Shown here one piece after another: positions 5,271 through 57,100 of a stretch of DNA of 64,000 nucleotides; within the stretch, counting starts at the first letter, position 1; every line of letters starts with the position of its first letter. The notes under the pieces are model-generated. The model was given only the letters and a program-made list of their open reading frames with translations. It made no database searches and was not told the origin of the DNA. Location: sequence record OR539219.1. One strand, 5' to 3'. The DNA is from Escherichia phage vB-Eco-KMB39. The position numbers and the translations under genes are program-made.

Positions 5271-6080
5271 ATGCTTAAAGAACAACTGATTGCCGAAGCG
5301 CAGAAAATTGATGCTTCCGTTGCTCTTGATAGTATTTTCGAATCAGTTAATATTTCTCCGGAAGCAAAAGAAACTTTCGGCACTGTATTCGAAGCTACCG
5401 TCAAGCAGCACGCCGTTAAATTAGCTGAATCTCATATCGCTAAAATTGCTGAAAAAGCAGAAGAAGAAGTAGAAAAAAATAAAGAAGAAGCCGAAGAAAA
5501 AGCTGAGAAGAAAATCGCTGAGCAAGCTTCTAAATTCATTGACCATCTTGCAAAAGAATGGCTCGCTGAAAATAAATTAGCAGTTGATAAAGGCATCAAA
5601 GCCGAACTGTTTGAATCCATGCTTGGTGGATTAAAAGAGCTCTTTGTTGAACACAACGTTGTTGTTCCAGAAGAATCAGTTGATGTTGTAGCTGAAATGG
5701 AAGAAGAGCTGCAAGAACATAAAGAAGAATCAGCTCGTCTGTTCGAAGAACTCAATATGCGCGACGCATATATCAATTATGTGCAGCGTGAAGTGGCATT
5801 GAGCGAAAGTACTAAAGATCTGACTGAGTCTCAAAAAGAAAAAGTCTCTGCTCTGGTCGAAGGTATGGATTATTCAGATGAATTCTCAAATAAATTGAGT
5901 GCCATCGTAGAAATGGTGAAGAAGTCTAATAAAGATGAAAGCACTATTACTGAGGGTATAAATACTCCTGATACTGAAGCAGCCGGACTGAATTTCGTCA
6001 CTGAAGCTGTAGAAGATAAAGCTGCACAGGGTGCAGAAGATATTGTAAGTGTATATGCGAAAGTCGCATCTCGTTTCTAA
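5271..6080 (+). CDS. 22: prohead scaffolding core protein gp22
   Basis: 269 aa, highly charged coiled-coil-like (E/K rich); late promoter TATAAATA at 5236. Confidence 0.9.
   Translation: MLKEQLIAEAQKIDASVALDSIFESVNISPEAKETFGTVFEATVKQHAVKLAESHIAKIAEKAEEEVEKNKEEAEEKAEKKIAEQASKFIDHLAKEWLAENKLAVDKGIKAELFESMLGGLKELFVEHNVVVPEESVDVVAEMEEELQEHKEESARLFEELNMRDAYINYVQREVALSESTKDLTESQKEKVSALVEGMDYSDEFSNKLSAIVEMVKKSNKDESTITEGINTPDTEAAGLNFVTEAVEDKAAQGAEDIVSVYAKVASRF
5957..5964 (+). promoter_or_regulatory. late promoter core TATAAATA inside gene 22 (gene 23 promoter)
   Basis: Exact match about 135 bp upstream of gene 23; a P23 promoter inside gene 22 is known for T4. Confidence 0.65.
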
Positions 6081-20308: not shown

Positions 20309-22077
20309 AAAAGCCACAAGAAATGCAAACGATGCGTAGAAAAGTTATTTCAGATAATAAACCAACACAGGAAGCGGCTAAATCCGCTTCTAACACTTTA
20401 TCTGGACTTAATGATATATCTACGAAATTGGATGATGCTCAAGCTGCTTCTGAATTAATAGCTCAAACTGTCGAAGAAAAATCGAATGAAATAGTTGGAG
20501 CAATTGGTAACGTAGAAAGCGCAGTGAGTGATACTACTGCCGGTTCTGAGTTAATTGCTGAAACTGTCGAAATTGGCAACAATATTAATAAAGAAATCGG
20601 TGAATCACTCGGAAGCAAATTAGATAAATTAACAAGTTTACTGGAACAAAAAATTCAGACAGCTGGAATTCAGCAAACTGGAACGAGTTTAGCTACGGTT
20701 GAAAGCGCTATTCCCGTTAAAGTCGTTGAGGATGGTACTGCTGAATCTGTGGGTCCTTTATTACCAGCTCCTGAAGCAGTTAATAATGATCCTGACGCTG
20801 ATTTTTTCCCTACCCCTCAGCCAGTTGAGCCAAAGCAAGAATCACCAGAAGAAAAACAGAAAAAAGAAGCATTTAACTTAAAATTATCTCAAGCTTTAGA
20901 TAAATTAACAAAGACAGTTGATTTTGGATTTAAGAAATCCATTTCAATTACTGATAAAATATCAAGCATGCTATTTAAGTATACCGTCAGTGCTGCTATT
21001 GAAGCTGCTAAAATGACTGCAATGATATTGGCTGTTGTTGTTGGAATAGACCTGTTGATGGTTCATTTTAAATACTGGTCAGATAAATTTTCAAAAGCCT
21101 GGGATTTATTTAATACTGACTTTACTAAATTCTCTAGCGAAACCGGAACATGGGGTCCTTTATTACAGAGCATCTTTGATTCTATTGATAAAATTAAACA
21201 ACTTTGGGAAGCGGGAGATTGGGGTGGATTGACAGCAGCTATTGTTGAAGGACTCGGAAGTGTTCTTTTTAATTTAGGTGAACTTATTCAATTAGGTATG
21301 GCTAAATTATCTGCAGCAATTCTTCGAGTCATTCCTGGTATGAAGGATACTGCTGATGAAGTAGAAGGAAGAGCATTAGAAAATTTCCAAAATTCTACTG
21401 GAGCATCTCTCAATAAAGAAGACCAGGAAAAAGTTGCAAATTATCAAGATAAACGAATGAATGGAGACCTTGGTCCGATAGCAAAAGGATTAGATAAAAT
21501 TGCTAATTGGAAAACTCGTGCATCTAATTGGATTCGTGGGGTTGATAATAAAGAAGCACTAACTACCGACGAAGAACGCGCAGCAGAAGAAGAAAAATTA
21601 AAGCAACTTTCACCTGAAGAAAGAAAAAATGCTTTAATGAAGGCTAATGAAGCCCGTGCCGCAATGATTCGCTTTGAAAAATATGCTGATTCAGCTGATA
21701 TGAGTAAAGACTCAACGGTTAAATCAGTTGAAGCTGCCTATGAAGACCTTAAAAAACGGATGGATGACCCGGATTTAAATAATTCGCCGGCAGTTAAAAA
21801 AGAACTTGCTGCTAGATTTTCTAAAATTGATGCTACTTATCAAGAGCTCAAGAAAAATCAGCCTAATGCCAAACCTGAAACTTCTGCTAAATCGCCAGAA
21901 GCAAAACAAGTCCAGGTAATAGAAAAGAACAAAGCACAGCAAGCTCCTGTTCAACAAGCATCTCCTTCAATCAATAATACTAATAATGTTATTAAGAAAA
22001 ATACTGTCGTTCATAATATGACACCCGTAACGAGCACGACTGCTCCTGGTGTATTTGATGCGACTGGAGTTAATTAA
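20305..22077 (+). CDS. 29: baseplate hub / tail length determinator gp29
   Basis: 590 aa, extended alpha-helical low-complexity protein; synteny. Confidence 0.8.
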   Translation: MKKPQEMQTMRRKVISDNKPTQEAAKSASNTLSGLNDISTKLDDAQAASELIAQTVEEKSNEIVGAIGNVESAVSDTTAGSELIAETVEIGNNINKEIGESLGSKLDKLTSLLEQKIQTAGIQQTGTSLATVESAIPVKVVEDGTAESVGPLLPAPEAVNNDPDADFFPTPQPVEPKQESPEEKQKKEAFNLKLSQALDKLTKTVDFGFKKSISITDKISSMLFKYTVSAAIEAAKMTAMILAVVVGIDLLMVHFKYWSDKFSKAWDLFNTDFTKFSSETGTWGPLLQSIFDSIDKIKQLWEAGDWGGLTAAIVEGLGSVLFNLGELIQLGMAKLSAAILRVIPGMKDTADEVEGRALENFQNSTGASLNKEDQEKVANYQDKRMNGDLGPIAKGLDKIANWKTRASNWIRGVDNKEALTTDEERAAEEEKLKQLSPEERKNALMKANEARAAMIRFEKYADSADMSKDSTVKSVEAAYEDLKKRMDDPDLNNSPAVKKELAARFSKIDATYQELKKNQPNAKPETSAKSPEAKQVQVIEKNKAQQAPVQQASPSINNTNNVIKKNTVVHNMTPVTSTTAPGVFDATGVN

Positions 22078-24464: not shown

Positions 24465-24495
24465 TTTGTGTTCCTCATGTTATGTCAGTAAGACT

Positions 24496-24525
24496 ACTAT
24501 AACACAACATAAGGAACTTGTAAAC
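24496..24525 (-). promoter_or_regulatory. T4-type early promoter (GTTTAC -35, TATAGT -10)
   Basis: GTTTAC-N18-TATAGT on - strand, upstream of ORF 24174-24464. Confidence 0.55.
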
Positions 24526-26582
24526 TACATTTTGAACTTTTTAGACATTCCGTTGATGTTAACCAAAGAAGCCAAGATTTGAGAAACTTCGTTTTCCTCT
24601 TCTTTTGATTCTTCTACAAGAAATTGATTAAATCCAGCCATTGGACGAACTTCACCAGTTTCCATTAGATGGTCTCCATCATATACTGATTCTTCTAATT
24701 GTTCAGAAGGAGGAACGATTGTACCTTCAATTAGATACTTGTTATAAGCAGTTTCTTTCATAAAGTACGTACTTACTTTATTAATCTTCAGTAAAATTCC
24801 ACGCGGTAGAATAACTTCAGCTTCTGATGGAAATCCTGATAAATGACCTGGAACGATAACTTTGATTCGCTCAGCTCCTTTAATTACCATACCCACGCTA
24901 GTTTCAGCATCTTCATTAGCATATGTAGAATGACTACCCATATGCATCAAATCTTCTGCATCAACGGAATCTTCTCCTTCACCGGAAAATACTGCGCCGG
25001 AATCATCTAGAGCCATATAGTTTTTACCATGCTCACCGAAGATATTTGGTTTAAGCGATGTGGATACGAAGTTCTTGAAATAAAACATTTTATTTTCAAT
25101 GTTATGACGCAAAGTTTTAAAGGTAACTTCTTGTCCACGGTAAAGCGTAGTTCCTGGAGGAAGAACTGAACCTTTAGCGAATGCAGAATCCAACGTCTCG
25201 ATGTGCTTAATAGCACGTTCCATATATTCTTCACGGGTAGAATCTGGTTTACCCAAAAGGAACGAGTTCATTTCAACATATGAATCTGCACAATAATCTT
25301 CAATTACATCAGACTCAGCCTGAGTCAGTCCTTTTGGAGTTACTTCAGTGCTTGCGTATTCATATGCCTGAGCAGCAGATTCATTAATCAATTTATAAAT
25401 GCCATTCATGACAAATTGAATAATAGCTGTCTTTTCATCTGGCGTAGCTTTAGAACCTTTAACCAAATCATTGATAATTTTCTTAATAACATCAAAGCTA
25501 TTAGAAATATTAATGTCAGCAAGATCGCTTAAAATTTTATCGGTTTTATAATCAAAGAATTCTTTATTCTTTAAATATTCTTGAGAACCTTGATATGTTA
25601 TATCGCTCTGCAGCTTGATAGATGGATCACGTAAACGCGCATGGGCCAATGCGATATGATTTCGGAAGTTTTCTAGTTCATAATCGCTAGATTTAAAACG
25701 AGAAGCACTCCTCATACCACCAATAGCTCCTTTGCTGAAGTTTGAACCAATCTGGATAACGCCAGAGTTCATTGGTCCTTCTGCTTTATATACCGGAACT
25801 TTAGATTCAAACTCTTGATATTTCTTGGCAGCGAAGCTATCACCCTGAAGTGAAGCATCAACAGTAGAATATTGAGCTTGTGCTGCTAATCGACGACTGA
25901 TTTTAGTTTTCTGAATAACAGCTTGGTCCGTGCGTTTATCATTTTCTAAAGCAATAGAAGCAGCAACAGCGACAGCTTTAGGAACAGCATTTCCTGTTTT
26001 AACGTCTACATAAACATCACCGACCTTTGATTCAACTTTTGTGAATAACTCAGTTGAAATAGGAGGTACACCTGGAATGTCTTCTAAATTGGCATTTTTA
26101 CGGTAAACCATAATATATGCATACTTTTTATCATAGTCCCAGATTTCCTTTAAAAGAACATATCGACCTGCTCCTTTAGTACGTACTAAACGGTCAGCAA
26201 TAACTTGCATTTGACGAGCTGCGCCATTTGTTTTACTCTTTAGTACACGGAATAAGCACGCGTCAATTTTGTACTGCTTCATTGTTTGAAGAGCAGTATC
26301 AAAAACAGCATTAATGACGCCAATTGGATTTCCACCCAAGTTTCTAAGCTTAACCAGCGATAATTTCTCGTTGACACCTATCATTACGATATGCATCATT
26401 TTATCGCCTAGTTTAACGTTTTTATTTGTATCACCACCAGAGGTGTATGTACAAAATCTAAATCCAGGAAGCACGCTTTCTTCGCCGGCTTGGATAGCAA
26501 AAATTTGAGGTATTTTATGCTTAGGATTTAAGTTAACAACCGGCGCCGAAGCGCCGTCAAATAATTCTGTAATAAGTTCCAT
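24525..26582 (-). CDS. alt: Alt-family ADP-ribosyltransferase (copy 1, 685 aa)
   Basis: C-terminal ART signature: R (LYRGQ), S-T-S (FVSTSL), E-x-E (SEAEVILPRG); N-terminus MELITELFD... Confidence 0.8.
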   Translation of the reverse strand: MELITELFDGASAPVVNLNPKHKIPQIFAIQAGEESVLPGFRFCTYTSGGDTNKNVKLGDKMMHIVMIGVNEKLSLVKLRNLGGNPIGVINAVFDTALQTMKQYKIDACLFRVLKSKTNGAARQMQVIADRLVRTKGAGRYVLLKEIWDYDKKYAYIMVYRKNANLEDIPGVPPISTELFTKVESKVGDVYVDVKTGNAVPKAVAVAASIALENDKRTDQAVIQKTKISRRLAAQAQYSTVDASLQGDSFAAKKYQEFESKVPVYKAEGPMNSGVIQIGSNFSKGAIGGMRSASRFKSSDYELENFRNHIALAHARLRDPSIKLQSDITYQGSQEYLKNKEFFDYKTDKILSDLADINISNSFDVIKKIINDLVKGSKATPDEKTAIIQFVMNGIYKLINESAAQAYEYASTEVTPKGLTQAESDVIEDYCADSYVEMNSFLLGKPDSTREEYMERAIKHIETLDSAFAKGSVLPPGTTLYRGQEVTFKTLRHNIENKMFYFKNFVSTSLKPNIFGEHGKNYMALDDSGAVFSGEGEDSVDAEDLMHMGSHSTYANEDAETSVGMVIKGAERIKVIVPGHLSGFPSEAEVILPRGILLKINKVSTYFMKETAYNKYLIEGTIVPPSEQLEESVYDGDHLMETGEVRPMAGFNQFLVEESKEEENEVSQILASLVNINGMSKKFKM

Positions 26583-26585
26583 GAT

Positions 26586-28679
26586 TTATCCTTGAACGAA
26601 CTTGTAAGGCATGTTTGTAATATCTATGCAAGACGCAATAATTCCAAGAGATGATTCTACTTTCTGTTTAACATTTGATGAAACAAATGATGCAAAGTCA
26701 ACTTTGTCTTCTATTTCAATATCACCTGTCATTGCAACTACTTCGCCGGTTTCCATTAAACGGTCACCGTCATAAATTACCGATTCGGTGAGTTCTTCTG
26801 TGGTCATAACTTCAGCTTGAATGAGTTTTGTATTATTAGACGTGATTCCGTCATTATTAGAAGCATCAGTTATTTTATTAACTTTGACCATCAATCCACG
26901 CGGTAGAATAACTTCAGCTTCTGTTGCTATTCCGAGACTTCCTGGATATACAACATTAACTTTATGAGCTCCATCAATTGCCCATCCTATTTGAACTTTA
27001 ACGTATTCAGGATTTTCTTTATACGCTCTTATTTCGTTTGGATTAATAGTTATTCCTTCTTCATTTTTATCAACTGTTAATTCATTGCGAGCTTCTGGTT
27101 CTAAAAGACCAATACCAGCATGTGTAATTCCAAAACGTCCAAAAATGATAGGAGTTAAAGAAGTAGATACAAAATTTCTGAAATAGAACACTTTATTTTT
27201 AACTAGTGCTTCGTATATAGGAGCAGTCATACTTTGAGCACGATAAACTGTAATGCCTTCTGGTATACGGTCACCATTTTCAAAAGCTGAATCTAAATTA
27301 TTTATAGCAGATTCAATTTCTTTTTCACTCATTATATCATATCGTTCTGGATTGTAACGACCTAAAAGAAGATTATTGATGTCTGTATATCCTGAACCAC
27401 AATACTCTCTAATGCCGCGCTTTTGTGATGGAGTATATTTAGAACCATCACGGGCAATAGTAATATCAATCATTGGACCTGCACCAATTCCGGAAAAGCT
27501 ATAAATCATTCGTTTGAGGAATTTAGTTTTTGCTGCATTCCAGGCATTTTTAGTTATTTCTCCCCAGACTTCATCTGGCTGCCCTTTACGAGTTTTATTA
27601 TGTTTATCAAGCCAATTATCTTTATATTCTTCAAATAATTGATTAACAGCTGCTGCGTATTTCTCTAAACATTTTATTGAAGTAGTTGGTTCATTTTTAA
27701 TCGCATTAAGAATTACATCTTTAATTTTTTCTGAAACTTCACCGACTTGACTCATTGGAAAGAATTTATAATCATAGTGAAGTTCATCTGCCGTTCCTTC
27801 AGCAATAATTTTTGCTGCCTTAGTTTTAGAAGCTAATGAATTAATTCCAAGCTTCATTTCTTCTGCTTCGGGAATTAAAGGTGCAGTAGCAGGTTTATTG
27901 AAATTAGCTGCGGTAGATTCATACTTCTGGAATAATTCACTTTCAAATCTAGAAGATTCCAATGACTGACTTTGTGCAATTGCTCTACGGGAAATTTTAA
28001 CTTTAACGATTACGGCTTGGTCAGAACGTTTATCGTTTTCTTGTGCAATAGATGCAGCAATTGCCTCATTTTTGGTTACTTGAGCTCCAGTATCTTTATT
28101 AATATAAACATCACCGACCTTCGATTCAACTTTAGTAAAGAGCTCGGTACTAATTTCCGGAACTCCTGGAATGTCTTCTAGTGATACATTTTTGCGATGT
28201 ATAAGAATATATGCATACTTTTTATCATAATCCCAGAGTTCCTTAAGAAGGACGTATCTGCCACCTGAACGACTACGGATAAGTCTATCAGCAATAACTT
28301 GAATTTGTCGAGCTTGGCCAGCAGTTTTAGACTTAAGAATACGAAGCATACAAGCATCAATTTTATACTGACGCATTGTTTGCATTGCAACAGTAAAAAC
28401 TGAATTGATATAATTAATTGGGCTTGGACCAAGACCTTTTAATTTAGCAATTGAACCTTTAGCAGTTAATGTAAAAGGAACAATATGCATCATTTTGTCG
28501 CCCATTTTTAAATCGCGATTAGTATCACCTCCAGATGTATAGGTACATAAACGAAAGCCTGGTTGTTCAATTGCATCATCAACATGAACTGAAAAAATTT
28601 GTGGTATTTTCTTCTTTGGATTTAAGTTTGTAATCGGAAGAGTAGTATCTTCGTCAAATAATTCTGTAATAAGTTCCAT
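26586..28679 (-). CDS. alt: Alt-family ADP-ribosyltransferase (copy 2, 697 aa)
   Basis: Same N-terminus and ART motifs (VYRAQ, FVSTSL, TEAEVILPRG); central region diverged; late promoter TATAAATA upstream. Confidence 0.8.
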   Translation of the reverse strand: MELITELFDEDTTLPITNLNPKKKIPQIFSVHVDDAIEQPGFRLCTYTSGGDTNRDLKMGDKMMHIVPFTLTAKGSIAKLKGLGPSPINYINSVFTVAMQTMRQYKIDACMLRILKSKTAGQARQIQVIADRLIRSRSGGRYVLLKELWDYDKKYAYILIHRKNVSLEDIPGVPEISTELFTKVESKVGDVYINKDTGAQVTKNEAIAASIAQENDKRSDQAVIVKVKISRRAIAQSQSLESSRFESELFQKYESTAANFNKPATAPLIPEAEEMKLGINSLASKTKAAKIIAEGTADELHYDYKFFPMSQVGEVSEKIKDVILNAIKNEPTTSIKCLEKYAAAVNQLFEEYKDNWLDKHNKTRKGQPDEVWGEITKNAWNAAKTKFLKRMIYSFSGIGAGPMIDITIARDGSKYTPSQKRGIREYCGSGYTDINNLLLGRYNPERYDIMSEKEIESAINNLDSAFENGDRIPEGITVYRAQSMTAPIYEALVKNKVFYFRNFVSTSLTPIIFGRFGITHAGIGLLEPEARNELTVDKNEEGITINPNEIRAYKENPEYVKVQIGWAIDGAHKVNVVYPGSLGIATEAEVILPRGLMVKVNKITDASNNDGITSNNTKLIQAEVMTTEELTESVIYDGDRLMETGEVVAMTGDIEIEDKVDFASFVSSNVKQKVESSLGIIASCIDITNMPYKFVQG

Positions 28680-33024: not shown

Positions 33025-33061
33025 TTTTATTCTCCGAGATGTTTAATTGCGGTACAGGTAT

Positions 33062-33090
33062 ATAATATCATATCCTGTACCAAAGTAAAC
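33062..33090 (-). promoter_or_regulatory. T4-type early promoter (GTTTAC, TGaTATTAT)
   Basis: GTTTAC-N17-TATTAT with TG extension; -10 sits between 8-bp inverted repeats GGTACAGG / CCTGTACC. Confidence 0.55.
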
Positions 33091-33425: not shown

Positions 33426-33452
33426 TTTATTCTCCTTTGTTTGTGTAAGATA

Positions 33453-33482
33453 ATACTATCACAAAGGAACTATACTGTAAAC
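33453..33482 (-). promoter_or_regulatory. T4-type early promoter (GTTTAC, TGaTAGTAT)
   Basis: Motif upstream of ORF 33093-33425, downstream of terminator. Confidence 0.55.
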
Positions 33483-33510: not shown

Positions 33511-33532
33511 AAGGACTCCCGAAGGAGTCCTT
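33511..33532 (-). terminator. rho-independent terminator
   Basis: - strand AAGGACTCC-TTCG-GGAGTCCTT followed by T-run. Confidence 0.65.
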
Positions 33533-36314: not shown

Positions 36315-36344
36315 TTCAATTTCCTCATTTGTTTTGGTAGAGCT

Positions 36345-36374
36345 ATAATATCACAACTCTACCAAAAAGTAAAC
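36345..36374 (-). promoter_or_regulatory. T4-type early promoter (GTTTAC, TGaTATTAT)
   Basis: Motif upstream of ORF 36078-36314; -10 flanked by GGTAGAG / CTCTACC. Confidence 0.55.
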
Positions 36375-36855: not shown

Positions 36856-38266
<1,411 letters not shown>

Positions 38267-38270
<4 letters not shown>

Positions 38271-39637: not shown

Positions 39638-39668
39638 TATAAAGTCCTCATGTTATGTCAGTAAGATT

Positions 39669-39698
39669 ATTATAACACAACACGAGGGACTTGTAAAC
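39669..39698 (-). promoter_or_regulatory. T4-type early promoter (GTTTAC, TATAAT) for alc
   Basis: About 50-bp block nearly identical to the promoter at 24496-24525. Confidence 0.6.
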
Positions 39699-41316: not shown

Positions 41317-42495
41317 TTAAAAGTATTTTTTAAAACTCATCATAACTTTATCATCAACATCATTATCAATCTGTGCAACAAGATAAGATGACAGTTCTAC
41401 TTCTTGCGGCGCGGATTGAACATTATCAGAATTAAGGTATTCACGAATCCAAGGATATGGATGTTTAACCGGAGCATCGGTAATTGGGCATGGAAGACCA
41501 CACTGTTTCATACGAGATACAGTTAAGTAATCAATAAAGCTCCACATGCTATTTGTATTTAATCCAGGAACATCGCCATCTTTAAATAAATGAACTGCCC
41601 AATCTTTTTCTTGGCGGTTAACTTCCATGAAAATATCAACTGCTTCTTGTTCACACTCTTTGGCAATTTTAACCCATTCATCACCATCAGTGCCAAGTTG
41701 AAGTTGACGAATAATATACTGGGTGCCTTTAAGGTGGAGTTGTTCGTCTCGAGCAATGAATTTCATAATCTTCGCATTACCTTCCATGATTTCCATATTT
41801 TTATGGAAGTTGAAAGTACATGCAAAGGATACATAAAAACGAATAGCTTCCAGGGCATTGATAACATGAAGGCAGAGATAAAGCGACTTCATCAATGCAT
41901 ATTTACATTCTTCCACATGCATAAGACTATTTGAATATGCATCTAAATCATATTCATTTTCGGAAAAACATTTAAAAATTTCTTTTGCATTTTCCCATTC
42001 GCGCGTCTTAACCAGAACATCATCATAATAACGACCAATAGATTCAGCACGTTTCATGATAGCTTTATCTAATACAATCTCATCAAATACCTTTGACGGA
42101 TCAGTATAAAGATTTCGCATAATATGAGTGTATGAACGACTGTGAATAGTTTCACTAAAAGTCCATGTAGCAACCCATGTATCAAGACTTGGGTCTGAAA
42201 TTAACGACATAAGTACAGCAGACGGTGCACGACCCTGAATGCTATCTAGAAGTGATTGATACTTCAGGTTATTAGTAAAAATATCTTGCTGATATTGAGG
42301 AAGCTTGTTAAATTGCGCAGCATCCATCATTAAGTTTACTTCTTCAGGACGCCAGAAAAATGACAACTGCTTTTCGGTTAAATCTTCAAAAACTTTATGA
42401 CGTTGAATATCGTAACGCGCAATACCAAGACCTGAACCGAAGAACATAGGTTCTTTTAAAACATCAACTGGATTTGTATTAAAAACTGTAGACAT
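41317..42495 (-). CDS. nrdB: ribonucleotide reductase small subunit, uninterrupted
   Basis: 392 aa from ATG 42495 (MSTVFNTNP...); continuous reading frame; start overlaps mobE stop (TAATG). Confidence 0.9.
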   Translation of the reverse strand: MSTVFNTNPVDVLKEPMFFGSGLGIARYDIQRHKVFEDLTEKQLSFFWRPEEVNLMMDAAQFNKLPQYQQDIFTNNLKYQSLLDSIQGRAPSAVLMSLISDPSLDTWVATWTFSETIHSRSYTHIMRNLYTDPSKVFDEIVLDKAIMKRAESIGRYYDDVLVKTREWENAKEIFKCFSENEYDLDAYSNSLMHVEECKYALMKSLYLCLHVINALEAIRFYVSFACTFNFHKNMEIMEGNAKIMKFIARDEQLHLKGTQYIIRQLQLGTDGDEWVKIAKECEQEAVDIFMEVNRQEKDWAVHLFKDGDVPGLNTNSMWSFIDYLTVSRMKQCGLPCPITDAPVKHPYPWIREYLNSDNVQSAPQEVELSSYLVAQIDNDVDDKVMMSFKKYF

Positions 42496-43226
42496 TAATT
42501 TTTCCTCTTTAAAATTCTGCCGCGTTTCCAACCTGGCGGTATAATATCATCTTTACCTATAAGCGTGCATTCACTTCCATTATTAATCCATTTCTTACCG
42601 CGGATTCCTTTATAATCTCTTGGTTGTATTTTGTCAAACTTTGCATCAAGTTGATATGCCCATCGAAATCCATAGGCATATTGAAATTTACCCTCAGCAC
42701 AATATTTGATATTTGACCCGTTTCCATTAACTGACCTGGACGCTGCGGCAATAGAGTGAAAGGTTTCTATGAAATCCCCATCTAATGAGAATTTATGTAT
42801 TTCGATAGATGGGCATGCATACCTATTCACGTTTGATACATGTTGTTTAGTTTCGTTTTTATGATGCTTGCCTAACATTCCTCTAGGATGAGGATTATTT
42901 TTCCAATATTTCTTAAAGAAATCAGAATTAGCTTTAGCAAATAATTTTCTGTGCAAGCTATACAATCTGTTATTAATTCTATTACCAGCTTTATCTGTTG
43001 CCATTAACGTTAACGCAGAGGCAAGACCAAAATGGCCTTCATTTATCTTGCATAGTAATAGATGCGCTATAAAATGTTCTCTAGCTGTTAATTCAACTAA
43101 ATTTTCTTTATCATCAGAACCTCCCATGCATTTAGGGACTATATGATGTGTCTCTTTATACTCGGATAAATGTTCCCGAGCCTGAGCTCGGGAAATTAGG
43201 TCATTATAGATTTTTTGATAATTCAT
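42495..43226 (-). CDS. mobE: HNH homing endonuclease MobE
   Basis: 243 aa; HNH core ETHHIVPKCMGGSDDKENLVELTAREH; located between nrdA and nrdB as T4 mobE. Confidence 0.75.
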   Translation of the reverse strand: MNYQKIYNDLISRAQAREHLSEYKETHHIVPKCMGGSDDKENLVELTAREHFIAHLLLCKINEGHFGLASALTLMATDKAGNRINNRLYSLHRKLFAKANSDFFKKYWKNNPHPRGMLGKHHKNETKQHVSNVNRYACPSIEIHKFSLDGDFIETFHSIAAASRSVNGNGSNIKYCAEGKFQYAYGFRWAYQLDAKFDKIQPRDYKGIRGKKWINNGSECTLIGKDDIIPPGWKRGRILKRKN

Positions 43227-46047: not shown

Positions 46048-46359
46048 TTACACCGCCATTTTTCCTTTAATAGGAGGGTGTGATTCGTAACCTTTAAGAA
46101 CGAAATCTTTAGGCCTGAGTTTAAGAACATATTTTAATTGTTCTTTAGTAGAAAGATGACGGAATTTATAAGGCAATCCGCCTATTACCAGTTCACAAAG
46201 CTCTTTAGGTTCACGACGTAAAATTTCTTTACATTGTTCAACGTGATTCATATAGATATGAGTATTACCGCCAGAAAATATCAAATCTCCAGGAATAAGA
46301 TTACACATCTTAGCTACAATATGAATTAACGCAGCATATGATGCAATATTAAACGGTAG
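46048..46359 (-). CDS. td: thymidylate synthase, exon 2
   Basis: Frame begins directly after intron 3' AUG (CUACCGUUUAAU = LPFN...); C-terminal half of thymidylate synthase. Confidence 0.9.
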   Translation of the reverse strand, partial: LPFNIASYAALIHIVAKMCNLIPGDLIFSGGNTHIYMNHVEQCKEILRREPKELCELVIGGLPYKFRHLSTKEQLKYVLKLRPKDFVLKGYESHPPIKGKMAV

Positions 46360-47375
46360 CATTATGTTCAGATAAGGTCGTTAATCTTACCCCGGAATTA
46401 TATCCAGCTGCATGTCACCATGCAGAGCAGACTATATCTCCAACTTGTTAAAGCAAGTTGTCTATCGTTTCGAGTCACTTGACCCTACTCCCAAAAGGGA
46501 TAGTCGTTAGGCATTTATGTAGAACCAATTCCATTTATCAGATTTTACACGATAAGTAACTAATCCAGACGAAATTTTAAAATGTCTAGCTGCATCTGCT
46601 GCACAATCAAAAATAACCCCATCACATGAAATCTTTTTAATATTACTAGGCTTTTTACCTTTCATCTTTTCTGATATTTTAGATTTAGTTATGTCTGAAT
46701 GCTTATGATTAAAGAATGAATTATTTTCACCTGAACGATTTCTGCATTTACTACAAGTATAAGCAGAAGTTTGTATGCGAACACCGCACTTACAAAACTT
46801 ATGGGTTTCTGGATTCCAACGTCCGTTTTTACTTCCGGGTTTACTGTAAAGAGCTTTCCGACCATCAGATCCAAGTTTAAGCATCTTAGCTTTAACAGTT
46901 TCAGAACGTTTCTTAATAATTTCTTCTTTTAATGGATGCGTAGAACATGTATCACCAAACGTTGCATCAGCAATATTGTATCCATTAATTTTAGAATTAA
47001 GCTCTTTAATCCAAAAATTTTCTCGTTCAATAATCAAATCTTTCTCATATGGAATTTCTTCCAAAATAGAACATTCAAACACATTACCATGTTTGTTAAA
47101 AGACCTCTGAAGTTTTATAGAAGAATGGCATCCTTTTTCTAAATCTTTAAAATGCCTCTTCCATCTCTTTTCAAAATCTTTAGCACTTCCTACATATACT
47201 TTATTGTTTAAAGTATTTTTAATCTGATAAATTCCGCTTTTCATAAATACCTCTTTAAATATAGAAGTATTTATTAAAGGGCAGTCCTACAATTTAGCAC
47301 GGGATTGTCTACTAGAGAGGTTCCCCGTTTAGATAGATTACAAGTATAAGTCACCTTATACTCAGGCCTCAATTA
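46360..47375 (-). ncRNA. group I self-splicing intron in td (1016 nt)
   Basis: 5' splice site ...UUGGGU|UAAUUGAGGCCUGAGUAUAAGGUG; 3' end ...AUG|CUACCG; splicing restores a continuous thymidylate synthase frame; carries the I-TevI ORF. Confidence 0.9.
46507..47244 (-). CDS. intron-encoded GIY-YIG homing endonuclease I-TevI
   Basis: 245 aa; GIYQIKNTLNNKVYVGS GIY-YIG module, Zn finger and C-terminal DNA-binding domain; lies wholly inside the td intron. Confidence 0.9.
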   Translation of the reverse strand: MKSGIYQIKNTLNNKVYVGSAKDFEKRWKRHFKDLEKGCHSSIKLQRSFNKHGNVFECSILEEIPYEKDLIIERENFWIKELNSKINGYNIADATFGDTCSTHPLKEEIIKKRSETVKAKMLKLGSDGRKALYSKPGSKNGRWNPETHKFCKCGVRIQTSAYTCSKCRNRSGENNSFFNHKHSDITKSKISEKMKGKKPSNIKKISCDGVIFDCAADAARHFKISSGLVTYRVKSDKWNWFYINA

Positions 47376-47924
47376 ACCCAAGAAAACATCTACTGATCGT
47401 TGATACCACTGCAAATCCAAATAGCCATTACGCACATTAAACTGATAGAACATATGACAAGGCGGTAATGCCATTTGCTTGAGTTCAGCTGGATTCCATG
47501 CTGAAACAACTTGACGTCTATCATTTGGCAGTTTTTTAATACGATCAATAACTTCTACAATTTGGTCTACACCGCCAAAATCACGCCATTGTTTTCCATA
47601 AATTGGACCAAGTTCACCGCTATGGTATCCTAAATCTTTTGCTTGATTTTCGTAATTTTCATCCCAGACTGTTTTGCCTTGAATTAATGAATCATGCTGA
47701 ATTAATCGTAAATCATTTACGTTAGTACTTCCTGACAAAAACCATATTAGCTCAGCAATACAAGCTTTCCAGGCGAGCTTCTTAGTCGTTACTGCAGGAA
47801 AACCTTTAGTTAAATCCCAGCGTAATTTAGTACCGAACAAAGCAATTGTTCCTGTGCCTGTTCGGTCATCGGTTTCATAGCCATTTTCAAAAATGTCTTT
47901 AATTAAATCTTGGTATTGTTTCAT
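47376..47924 (-). CDS. td: thymidylate synthase, exon 1
   Basis: MKQYQDLIKDIFENGYETDDRTGTGT...; frame reaches intron-borne UAA directly after 5' splice site. Confidence 0.9.
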
Positions 47925-47969: not shown

Positions 47970-48320
47970 TCAATACGGTTTAGCATCAAATTTTCTTTCA
48001 ATTTCAGGCGTGAAATACAATTCTTTACCGCGTTTGGAAAAGCGACCAATAATATGATAATTATTCTCATCAAACGTAATATTGCCAATATCCATAGCTT
48101 TCAACCAAATATCGATATTTCTATCCAGTTTTATATCAAAATTCCAATACGGAGAACTATTACCGAAAATACTGCAAGCGGATTCAGTGCAATAACTGCT
48201 GCTATAAATCTTGTCTTTGGGAACTACTAATTGATAGACGCCTTTGATAAACTGAGGACCCTGCCATTTTGGTTGTTTCGCGTCTTTTTCTAATAGAATA
48301 GGATAATAATTAAAGTTCAT
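47970..48320 (-). CDS. hypothetical protein inserted between frd and td
   Basis: 116 aa from ATG 48320 (GTG at 48332 gives 120 aa); no recognisable motif; T4 frd and td overlap in my recollection. Confidence 0.5.
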   Translation of the reverse strand: MNFNYYPILLEKDAKQPKWQGPQFIKGVYQLVVPKDKIYSSSYCTESACSIFGNSSPYWNFDIKLDRNIDIWLKAMDIGNITFDENNYHIIGRFSKRGKELYFTPEIERKFDAKPY

Positions 48321-48340
48321 ATTTTCCGCCACGCGTTATT

Positions 48341-49424: not shown

Positions 49425-49449
49425 TTTATTCTCCTTAGTTGATAGGGTA

Positions 49450-49479
49450 ATAGTATCACACTACTACCCTACTGTAAAC
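49450..49479 (-). promoter_or_regulatory. T4-type early promoter (GTTTAC, TGaTACTAT)
   Basis: Motif upstream of ORF 49182-49424; -10 flanked by TAGGGTA / TACCCTA. Confidence 0.55.
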
Positions 49480-50238: not shown

Positions 50239-50257
50239 GGGGACCTCTAGGGTCCCC
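50239..50257 (-). terminator. rho-independent terminator after gene 32
   Basis: - strand GGGGACC-CTAGA-GGTCCCC followed by TTTTTTATTTT. Confidence 0.7.
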
Positions 50258-54035: not shown

Positions 54036-54064
54036 ATGAACCTCGTTCAATTAGTGAGATTTAT

Positions 54065-54094
54065 ATTATATACCATCCAAATCTTAAAGTAAAC
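54065..54094 (-). promoter_or_regulatory. T4-type early promoter (GTTTAC, TATAAT) for rnh
   Basis: GTTTAC-N18-TATAAT in rnh / 34 divergent region. Confidence 0.5.
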
Positions 54095-54139: not shown

Positions 54140-57100
54140 ATGGCCGAGATTAAAAGAAAGTTCAGAGCAGAAGATGGTCTGGACGCAGGTGGTGATAAAA
54201 TAATCAACGTAGCTTTAGCTGATCGTGCCGTAGGAACTGACGGCGTTAACGTTGATTACTTAATTCAAGAAAACACAGTTCAACAATATGATCCAACTCG
54301 TGGATATTTAAAAGATTTTGTAATCATTTATGATAACCGCTTTTGGGCTGCTATAAATGATATTCCAAAACCAGCAGGAGCTTTTAATAGCGTACGATGG
54401 AGAGCGTTACGTACTGATGCAAACTGGACAACTGTTTCATCAGGACCTTATCAATTAAAATCGGGCGAATCAATTTCAGTTGATACTGCAGCTGGTAATG
54501 ACATTACATTTACTTTACCATCTTCTCCAATTGATGGTGATACCATCGTTCTCCAAGATATTGGAGGAAAACCTGGAGTTAATCAAGTTTTAATTACAGC
54601 TCCGGTACAAAGCATTGTAAATTTTAGAGGTCAGCAAGTACGTTCAGTACTAATGACTCATCCAAAATCACAGATAGTTTTAATTTTTAGTAATCGTCTG
54701 TGGCAAATGTATGTTGCTGATTATAGTAGAGAAGCTGTAGTTGTAACTCCTGCGAGTCTCTATCAGGCACAATCAAACGATTTTATCGTACGTAGATTTA
54801 CTTCTGCTTCAGCAATTAATATTAAACTTCCAAGATTTGCCAATCATGGCGATATTATTAATTTCGTTGATTTGGATAAATTAAATCCTCTTTATCACAC
54901 AATTGTTACTACATATGATGAAACAACTTCAGTACAAGAAGTTGGAACTCATTCCATTGAAGGCCGTACATCGATTGACGGTTTCTTGATGTTTGATGAT
55001 AATGAGAAATTGTGGAGATTGTTTGACGGGGATAGTAAAGCACGTTTACGCATTATAACAACTAATTCTAATATTCGTCCAAACGAAGAAGTCATGGTAT
55101 TTGGCGCGAATAATGGAACAACCCAAACAATTGAACTTCAGCTTCCGACTGATATTTCTGTTGGTGATACTGTTAAAATTTCCATGAATTATATGAGAAA
55201 AGGACAAACAGTTAAAATCAAAGCTGCCGGTGAAGATAAAATTGCTTCTTCAGTTCAATTGCTGCAATTCCCAAAACGTTCAGAATATCCACCTGAAGCT
55301 GAATGGGTGACTGTTCAAGAATTAGTTTTTAACGGCGAAACTAATTATGTTCCAGTTTTACAGCTTGCTTATATAGAAGATTCTGATGGAAAATACTGGG
55401 TGGTACAACAAAACGTTCCAACAGTTGAAAGAGTTGATTCTTTAAATGATTCTACTAGAGCAAGATTAGGCGTAATTGCTTTAGCTACACAAGCTCAAGC
55501 AAATGCTGATTTAGAAAATTCTCCGCAAAAAGAATTAGCAATTACACCAGAAACATTAGCTAACCGTACTGCTACAGAAACTCGTAGAGGTATCGCAAGA
55601 ATAGCAACTACTGCCCAAGTGAACCAGGATACTACATTCTCTTTTGCAGATGACCTTATCATTACTCCTAAAAAGCTGAATGAAAGAACTGCTACAGAAA
55701 CTCGTAGAGGTGTCGCAGAAATTGCTACGCAGCAAGAAACTAATGCAGGAACCGATGATACTACAATCATCACTCCTAAAAAGCTTCAAGCTCGCCAAGG
55801 TTCTGAATCATTATCTGGTATTGTAACCTTTGTATCTACTGCAGGTGCTACTCCAGCTTCTAGCCGTGAATTAAATGGTACGAATGTTTATAATAAAAAC
55901 ACTAATAATTTAGTTGTTTCACCTAAAGCTTTGGATCAGTATAAAGCTACTCCAACACAACAAGGTGCGGTAATTTTAGCAGTTGAAAGTGAAGTAATTG
56001 CTGGACAAAGTCAGGAAGGATGGGCAAATGCTGTTGTAACGCCAGAAACGTTACATAAAAAGACATCAACTGATGGAAGAATTGGTTTAATTGAAATTGC
56101 TACGCAAAGTGAAGTTAATACAGGAACTGATTATACTCGTGCAGTCACTCCTAAAACTTTAAATGACCGTAGAGCAACTGAAAGTTTAAGTGGTATAGCT
56201 GAAATTGCTACACAGGTTGAATTCGACGCAGGCGTCGACGATACTCGTATCTCTACACCATTAAAAATTAAAACCAGATTTAATAGTACTGATCGTACTT
56301 CTGTTGTTGCTCTATCTGGATTAGTTGAATCAGGAACTCTCTGGGACCATTATACCCTTGATATTCTTGAAGCAAATGAGACACAGCGTGGTACACTTCG
56401 TGTAGCTACACAGGTCGAAGCTGCTGCAGGAACATTAGATAATGTTTTAATAACTCCTAAAAAGCTTTTAGGTACTAAATCTACTGAAGCACAAGAAGGT
56501 GTTATTAAAGTTGCAACTCAGTCTGAAACTGTGGCTGGAACGTCAGCAAATACTGCTGTATCTCCAAAAAATTTAAAATGGATTGTGCAGAGTGAACCTA
56601 CCTGGGCAGCTACTACTACAGTAAGAGGCTTTGTTAAAACTTCATCTGGTTCAATTACATTTGTCGGTAATGATACGGTAGGTTCAACACAGCCATTAGA
56701 ATCATATGAGAAAAATGGTTATGCAGTATCACCATATGAATTAAACCGTGTATTAGCAAATTATTTGCCATTAAAAGCAAAAGCTGTAGATAGTAATTTA
56801 TTGGATGGTCTAGATTCATCTCAGTTCATTCGTAGGGACATTGCGCAGACAGTTAATGGTTCACTAACCTTAACCCAACAAACGAATCTGAGTGCCCCTC
56901 TTGTATCATCTAGTACTGCTACGTTTGGTGGTTCAGTTTCGGCAAATAGTGTACTAACTATTTCTAATACTGGAACAGAAACTCATCTGATTTTTGAGAA
57001 AGGACCTCAAACTGGAACTAACCAAGCGCAGACGGTGACTATTAGAGTGTGGGGTAATCAATTTAGTGGGGAATCAGACACAACACGTTCTACTGTATTT

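Follow-up and report, generated by a model that had tools for sequence, protein, structure and literature searches.

Putative read-through-specific stem-loops around early promoters of the T4-like Escherichia phage vB-Eco-KMB39

Introduction

Six early promoters in a 64,000-nt stretch of Escherichia phage vB-Eco-KMB39 DNA (OR539219.1; hereafter the window) probably lie within stem-loops that can form only on RNA reading through from upstream, and so distinguish long transcripts from locally started ones. The 5' arm of each predicted stem falls in the promoter spacer. In three promoters, which we call class A (33062, 36345 and 49450, named by the lower coordinate of the -10), the 3' arm lies over the predicted transcription start; in the other three (class B; 24496, 39669 and 33453) it lies over the Shine-Dalgarno (SD) sequence, which the stem would hide. 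The evidence comes from promoter motifs, folding, comparison with relatives and a survey of T4 early promoters. Both the formation of these hairpins in living cells and their function are inferred.

Early promoters of the window

The window is T4-like phage DNA, about 95-97% identical to T4. The 7 kb around the 33062 promoter share 95-98% identity with several hundred Tequatrovirus genomes, and T4 positions 118000-150000 are colinear with window positions 19427-53331. A sequence-only reading had proposed at least eight minus-strand early promoters with GTTTAC and an extended -10, and the eight it listed proved to be the window's best matches. The consensus GTTTAC-N16-19-TANNAT matched nine times over the whole window where 1.0 was expected, and seven of the nine are among those eight; the remaining site, 24496-24525 (minus strand), has TATAGT as its -10. 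The stricter GTTTAC...TGnTAnTAT gave five matches against 0.01 expected, with variants of it at 39669 (TGTTATAAT), 24496 (TGTTATAGT) and 54065 (GGTATATAAT). Ranked by a simple -35/-10/TG score, the top eight matches (score of at least 11) are exactly the eight sites, and all lower-scoring matches are intragenic with ordinary folds. GTTTAC and TAnnnT are present in all eight and TGn in seven; by eye, the 40 nt 5' of each site are A/T-rich, with UP-like A- or T-tracts. The enriched signal is a phage-specific consensus, since a generic sigma-70 scan of 32-40 kb was not enriched (21 matches, 30.4 expected). Two plus-strand motif matches, at 55044 and 61939, were rejected as chance, being inside late tail-fibre genes, without TGn and with ordinary folds.

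All eight sites are on the early strand, 26-45 nt ahead of an SD-led gene, and are orthologous to T4 Pe sites. Their intergenic counterparts in T4 are those upstream of alt.-3 (24496), 30.7 (33062), 30.8 (33453), cd.2 (36345), alc (39669), frd.1 (49450), frd.3 (50179) and rnh (54065), and the T4 record names one early promoter, Pe133295, between cd.2 and cd.3, the orthologue of 36345. The promoters were also said usually to abut the upstream stop codon; for five of them the distance is 0-5 nt. An intrinsic terminator precedes 33453 and 50179, and 54065 stands at the head of a divergent region. T4 early promoters form an 'UP/-35/TGn/-10' class with extra conserved positions (PMC2988021). The window copies follow the same consensus (GTTTAC, TGn and TAnnnT, with a spacer of 17 bp when counting starts at TTTACn, and upstream DNA rich in A/T) and are orthologues with few substitutions, with no difference at the promoter level. 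On motif and position, the eight elements are predicted sigma-70 'UP/-35/TGn/-10' early promoters of the known T4 type.

The promoters and arms are given below. PeSLs are the cassettes of early promoter plus stem-loop described in phi1/RB49 (Arbiol et al. 2010, PMC2839356).

33085-33090, minus strand: -35 (GTTTAC) of the gp30.7 promoter, the focal site; T4 orthologue at about 129.9 kb, between 30.8 and 30.7
33062-33070, minus strand: extended -10 of the focal promoter, TGATATTAT; hexamer 33062-33067; predicted +1 is the G at 33055
33074-33082, minus strand: focal 5' arm, (T)GGTACAGG, within the promoter spacer
33050-33058, minus strand: focal 3' arm, CCTGTACC(G), covering -3 to +6 of the predicted start
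36332-36374, minus strand: cd.2 promoter (T4 Pe133295); -35 36369-36374, -10 36345-36350
36352-36367 and 36332-36347, minus strand: cd.2 5' arm TTTTGGTAGAGTTGTG and 3' arm TATAGCTCTACCAAAA; predicted +1 is the A at 36338, in the 3' arm
49442-49479, minus strand: frd.1 promoter; -35 49474-49479, -10 49450-49455
49459-49472 and 49442-49455, minus strand: frd.1 5' arm GTAGGGTAGTAGTG and 3' arm TACTATTACCCTAT
39646-39698, minus strand: alc promoter; -35 39693-39698, -10 39669-39674
39673-39687 and 39646-39660, minus strand: alc 5' arm and 3' arm (TGACATAACATGAGG), the latter over the SD
24470-24525, minus strand: alt.-3 promoter; -35 24520-24525, -10 TATAGT 24496-24501
24500-24517 and 24470-24487, minus strand: alt.-3 5' and 3' arms, the latter over the SD GAGG (24473-24476)
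33432-33482, minus strand: gp30.8 promoter; -35 33477-33482, -10 33453-33458
33461-33469 and 33432-33440, minus strand: gp30.8 5' arm TTCCTTTGT and 3' arm ACAAAGGAG, the latter over the SD
33511-33532, minus strand: canonical intrinsic terminator (UUCG-loop stem and T-run) 5' of the 30.8 promoter, a PeSL-type upstream stem-loop
50179-50208, minus strand: frd.3 promoter, with the gene 32 terminator (about 50239-50257) ahead of it
54057-54094, minus strand: rnh promoter, first in a leftward early unit divergent from gene 34

Stems across the promoters

Perfect inverted repeats of 7-8 bp had been reported around the -10 of three promoters. All three are present, GGTACAGG/CCTGTACC at 33074-33081/33051-33058, GGTAGAG/CTCTACC at 36357-36363/36336-36342 and TAGGGTA/TACCCTA at 49465-49471/49443-49449 (1-2 nt from the approximate position reported), yet the description understated them. 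When G.U pairs are allowed, the repeats are the cores of larger sense-strand stems, and 24496, 39669 and 33453 likewise pair their spacer with sequence farther downstream, so that six of the eight promoters have predicted RNA stems of 9-18 bp with z-scores of -3 to -7.6. Energies were computed on 54-nt segments from the spacer to +30, and z-scores against dinucleotide shuffles.

Among the class A stems, the focal one has 8-9 bp around a 15-nt loop that contains the -10 (-16.1 kcal/mol, z -3.7) and leaves the SD GGAG (33032-33035) unmasked. The cd.2 stem has 11 Watson-Crick pairs, or 16 bp with G.U (-19.8 kcal/mol, z -6.2), and that of frd.1 has 14 bp with G.U (-17.8 kcal/mol, z -4.5). The class B stems have 15 bp in alc (-22.3 kcal/mol, z -7.6), 18 bp in alt.-3 (-25.7 kcal/mol, z -6.9) and 9 bp in gp30.8 (-12.1 kcal/mol, z -3.0). 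The alt.-3 cassette is a paralogous copy of the alc cassette, identical at 49 of 54 positions, much as the sequence-only reading had described it (one nearly identical block of about 50 bp). No stem straddles the -10 of the frd.3 promoter (-8.9 kcal/mol, z -1.5), and the rnh promoter has just a weak 7-bp repeat, AGATTTG/TAAATCT (-6.3 kcal/mol, z -0.3). Folding every 54-nt window on the early strand from 24000 to 54500 (30.5 kb) placed five of these promoters among the eleven most stable; the others fall at terminators, in the td intron region or at a few sites within coding sequence. Rfam at its gathering threshold gave no family anywhere in the window.

The PeSL literature suggests one account of such stems, namely that they primarily attenuate or terminate transcription arriving from upstream and leave each gene dependent on its own promoter. 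Arbiol et al. 2010 (PMC2839356) report that a phi1 PeSL stem-loop lowered expression of lacZ to the same degree as rrnB T1, and that overlap with the -10 defines a common PeSL subclass; the window stems directly follow upstream stop codons. Against this, none of the six stems was called by a terminator scan or is followed by a T-run; a G+C-rich stem with a U-run was found only at 33511-33532 and upstream of 50179. T4 early units also read through into delayed-early genes (PMC2988021), and the stems of class B reach no farther than the SD, which leaves 8-12 nt to the start codon. Because the stems lack T-tails, we disfavour termination as their main function, and we regard attenuation as their primary role as unlikely. 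Class A stems begin 6-10 nt past the upstream stop codon, likewise without a T-tail. As for the read-through reading itself, it predicted that promoters shielded by a terminator upstream would lack the stem; the trend in that direction was weak and not significant (-8.5 vs -12.7 kcal/mol on average, p = 0.23), and 33453 carries both.

Which transcripts can fold

With the start placed at the usual distance, the seventh nucleotide after the -10, transcription is predicted to begin inside the 3' arm at 33062, 36345 and 49450, and 2-6 nt ahead of the 3' arm at 24496, 39669 and 33453. The position in the T4 name Pe133295 is exactly that of the predicted +1, the A within CTCTACC, inside the 3' arm. 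A promoter's own transcript would thus lack the 5' arm, and the stem is therefore possible only on read-through RNA from upstream. Such RNA is to be expected in T4, where reading through from early units into downstream (delayed-early) genes is a central feature of prereplicative transcription (PMC2988021).

The sequence-only reading had offered a 5' UTR hairpin as one meaning of the symmetry. The 3' arm is indeed transcribed from the promoter, but all plausible starts are downstream of the 5' arm, which occupies -30 to -12 within the -35/-10 spacer, and Pe133295, at its predicted +1, is already within the 3' arm. A structure in the promoter's own leader is thus barely credible.

The T4 record also flags 14 nt as 'inverted complement of previously reported sequence; corrects the early promoter Pe133295'. 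These nucleotides (window 36343-36356, T4 133300-133313, L001 15301-15314) are exactly the loop that GGTAGAG and CTCTACC enclose. In the earlier sequence the hairpin loop was therefore flipped, whether because the arms had truly inverted the DNA between them or through an artefact of sequencing or cloning.

Evidence favouring an RNA helix

A symmetric element in DNA and a helix in RNA differ in the mismatches they tolerate. We searched for stems in a strand-symmetric way, with G.T and A.C mismatches allowed equally, and the 18 strong T4 stems held 20 G.T and 2 A.C (binomial p = 1e-4). Sense folds were more stable than antisense folds in T4 (Wilcoxon p = 1.5e-4). The four largest stems in the window contain 12 G.U and no A.C, and folding the opposite strand costs them 6-10 kcal/mol. 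These asymmetries point to selection acting on the sense-strand RNA.

The reading had made its claim depend on the repeats being conserved in relatives, and across four genera the arms are indeed kept or compensated. At 30.7 the comparison took in 19 orthologous loci from Tequatro-, Mosig-, Dhaka- and Gaprivervirus, 14 of them from IMG/VR and five from GenBank genomes; all keep the arms GGTACAGG/CCTGTACC invariant, the sole arm change observed being G-C to G.U, while the loop, the 5'-UTR and the flanking coding sequence diverge. The focal arms are thus conserved without covariation, and may have a sequence-specific role. Elsewhere the arms covary, on the evidence of few independent lineages. 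The cd.2 stem GGTAGAGTT/AGCTCTACC becomes GGTAGGACT/AGTCCTACC in relatives, with both sides changed in three pairs, and over 8 distinct orthologues 92% of its positions pair, against 21-53% with the partners slid. Relatives have AGGCTAT/ATAGCCT in place of the frd.1 repeat TAGGGTA/TACCCTA, at the same spot and with -15.6 kcal/mol, and in the Dhakavirus 30.8 promoter TCTCCGGT/ACTGGAGA replaces the spacer/SD pairing CCTTTGT/ACAAAGG. At a C.A mismatch of T4 alt.-3, the window copy reads GTTCC...GGAAC, and two compensatory changes separate the paralogous T4 promoters at 20583 and 57961.

These comparisons bear on two explanations at the level of DNA. The inverted repeat could be an operator for a dimeric protein bound across the -10, such as a factor that shuts off early promoters; the dyads are perfect over 7-14 bp and centred on the -10, the 33062 arms are invariant across genera, and reviews state the early shut-off mechanism to be unknown. 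However, the arm sequences differ wholly between promoters and no shared dyad consensus at a fixed position was found across the sites, so a common operator is unlikely. The dyad centre also varies, with loops of 3 to 20 nt, and the class B 3' arm is the SD, 20 or more nt past the -10. Since the arms share no sequence, keep G.T over A.C, and covary or are replaced with pairing retained, we read them as an RNA helix rather than a DNA-binding site, and an operator, which the reading had also proposed, is highly improbable.

Alternatively, the repeats could be a by-product of DNA processes without RNA function, that is, hairpin or cruciform sites, recombination scars of mobile promoter cassettes or products of quasi-palindrome templated mutation. 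The promoters do behave like cassettes: the alc and alt.-3 blocks are near-copies, the frd.1 cassette is missing in two relatives with its junction at the SD, adjacent NC-G promoters have near-identical leaders, and PeSL-mediated recombination is documented (PMC2839356, PMC4122927). A by-product predicts that G.T and A.C are equally frequent and that sense and antisense folds are equally stable, and neither was observed; moreover, only cognate arms show the complementarity, which is kept through substitutions, and the enrichment is specific to promoter junctions. We therefore hold a by-product to be very unlikely and retain the RNA helix as the preferred reading.

Stems at early promoters across T4

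The early strand of T4 was scanned for strong promoter matches in 1-78 kb and 118-169 kb. Eighteen of 41 such matches have z-scores of -3 or lower, typically with 9-18 pairs between the spacer and downstream sequence. We compared each spacer plus its own downstream region with chimeras in which the spacer and -10 of one promoter were joined to the downstream region of another. Folds of -15 kcal/mol or lower were reached by 40% of cognate combinations and 2.2% of chimeras (permutation p < 1/5000), and for 15 of 40 promoters the cognate partner ranked best of 40. Because cognate pairs outfold chimeras, the complementarity is promoter-specific rather than something that the common consensus brings about. 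Among T4 gene junctions, the same energy was reached by 36% of those with an early promoter and 4.8% of those without (p = 0.003).

Two further kinds of promoter were noticed. Stemless promoters at T4 27051, 55355, 70667, 163644 and 167057 and at window 50179 share a conserved -10/leader block, GGTACTAT-ACAACTATCAACTACTGATAC, which constitutes a second repeated promoter-leader family. Other promoters, at T4 2429 and 50944 and in L008/L013-L015, have a small hairpin wholly within the spacer and extended -10 (CCACA-AGGA-TGTGG or CACCA-nGGA-TGGTG), resembling the PeSL subclass located between -35 and -10.

Shine-Dalgarno accessibility and a proposed mechanism

The probability that the SD is unpaired was obtained by partition-function folding of the read-through RNA and of the promoter's own transcript, as follows.

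39669, minus strand: read-through 0.01, own transcript 0.84
33453, minus strand: read-through 0.04, own transcript 0.87
24496, minus strand: read-through 0.00, own transcript 0.09
36345, minus strand: read-through 0.38, own transcript 0.77
33062, minus strand: read-through 0.75, own transcript 0.34
49450, minus strand: read-through 0.79, own transcript 0.77

On the predicted read-through RNA, the SD is masked at 24496, 39669 and 33453, part-masked at 36345, and free at 33062 and 49450. The alt.-3 SD (24496) is mostly paired on its own transcript too. Over T4 as a whole, mean SD accessibility is 0.36 on read-through RNA against 0.52 on own transcripts (p = 0.013), and the SD is masked essentially in full at about a dozen promoters, those of regB, alc, modB and denV among them. 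Masking is predicted for only about one in three hairpins and was rejected as a universal function of the stems, as class A stems leave the SD free.

We propose the following mechanism. The promoter spacer would serve as the 5' arm, with the 3' arm just past the -10, across the start in class A or the SD in class B. RNA begun at an upstream promoter would read through the cassette, and the hairpin would fold on that RNA only, so that it would distinguish read-through (delayed-early or middle) RNA from locally started (immediate-early) RNA. In class B the SD of the read-through RNA would be buried; the gene would then be translated solely from transcripts of its own promoter, and its GGAG/GAGG would be open to RegB solely on those transcripts. 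RNA structure stops RegB, and most middle transcripts escape it; masking would therefore shield RegB sites on long RNAs. Since class A stems leave the SD free, their function can be proposed by analogy only; by comparison with PeSLs, the intercistronic stem-loop would most likely be a 3' stabiliser, an attenuator or an insulator. Ribosomes translating the upstream gene may affect the folding in either class.

A broader form of this proposal, which we offer tentatively and consider doubtful, is that early-promoter spacers are anti-leader or anti-SD elements, with immediate-early genes translated and exposed to RegB only on transcripts from their own promoters, whereas on read-through (delayed-early or middle) RNA they would be masked, not translated and resistant to RegB. 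If true, this would mean that the sudden halt in immediate-early protein synthesis after early promoters are shut off is encoded in cis, and would explain both why RegB cuts early and spares most middle transcripts and why the spacers of T4 early promoters have conserved sequences.

Cassette mobility and neighbouring genes

Two relatives (loci L027 and L029, at about 5925-6000 of each, upstream of frd.1) lack the whole frd.1 promoter cassette, and other upstream sequence joins at CTAAGGAG, directly before the SD; the junction suggests recombination at the cassette edge. In NC-G (L022) and LQ5 (L021), the adjacent promoters of 30.8 and 30.7 have near-identical leaders of about 45 nt, AGAC[A/C]TGTACCAAATAATAC[G/T]AAAACAAACTGGAGAATAAAATG, which suggests gene conversion or duplication between neighbouring cassettes.

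Several neighbouring genes differ from those of T4. Two tandem full-length genes for Alt-like ADP-ribosyltransferases lie on the minus strand at 24525-26582 and 26586-28679 (685 and 697 aa, 40% identical, PF03496), where T4 has one alt and the truncated remnants alt.-1 and alt.-2. At 41819-41822 the nrdB intron with I-TevIII (about 600 bp in T4) appears absent, and between nrdB and nrdA (42495-43226) a 243-aa NUMOD1-domain ORF with a sub-threshold HNH match occupies the place of T4 nrdB.1 and mobE. ORFs of 106 and 120 aa on the minus strand (37950-38270 and 47970-48332) lie in segments without a T4 counterpart and had no Pfam match. In the td region (46048-47924), a 245-aa ORF (46507-47244) stands at the position of T4 td I-TevI, so a td group I intron is probably present; Rfam at its gathering threshold gives no family there.

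Comparison with known systems

The promoters themselves are known, and the hairpin embedded through the spacer looks like a new form within a known kind of composite element, although the stems may have been described earlier in T4 proper. If the hairpins are as proposed, selection for an RNA function on passing transcripts acts on a strong promoter's 'non-informational' spacer, and the logic of a promoter inside a hairpin, so far catalogued for late T4 genes only, extends to roughly 40% of early promoters. The hairpins also give testable handles on two questions of T4 reviews, the immediate-early cut-off and the sparing of middle transcripts by RegB. Where T4 early promoters are used as reusable parts, or T4-like genomes are annotated, the cassette would bring a context-dependent RNA structure with it.

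The closest relatives in layout are the PeSLs. In phi1/RB49 five subclasses are told apart by position, of which location between -35 and -10 or overlap with the -10 is the most frequent, and their stems are drawn with G-T pairs, had terminator activity in a reporter and are given a role in modular recombination (PMC2839356). The window shares with them a strong early promoter together with a stem-loop in a single intergenic cassette of about 100 bp between the stop codon and the SD-ATG, a layout found at six of the eight sites, and its six stems match the subclass 'overlapping the -10' in position. As with PeSLs, whose cassettes are repeated and tied to indels and gene shuffling, the window cassettes show duplicated blocks, presence and absence, and shared leaders. 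However, the window stems lack the G-tract/C-tract and T-tails of PeSL stems, and those of class B pair with the SD. In PST/T4 the PeSL stem-loops lie just 5' of the promoter (Comeau et al. 2014, PMC4122927; also nt-1/KVP40), which is the position of the 33511-33532 terminator, unlike that of the stems straddling the -10; stems from spacer to +1 or from spacer to SD are undescribed there.

The second comparison is with e, soc, 49 and I-TevI (also segB and Aeh1 mobE), in which a hairpin that sequesters the ribosome binding site contains an internal promoter (PMC3014915, PMC2988022). There, as here, the 5' strand of the inhibitory helix lies upstream of or within the promoter, so that long transcripts mask the SD and transcripts from the internal promoter, lacking the 5' strand, are translatable. 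A 2010 review stated that the genes with a promoter in such a hairpin 'are all late genes' (PMC2988022). Their internal promoter is late (or middle), whereas those of the window are early and supply the 5' strand from their own spacer, and half of the window stems (class A) miss the SD. Because the promoters are early sigma-70 promoters, the window cassettes are a variant of the e/soc/49/I-TevI type rather than members of it, and class B is the early-gene mirror image of that arrangement.
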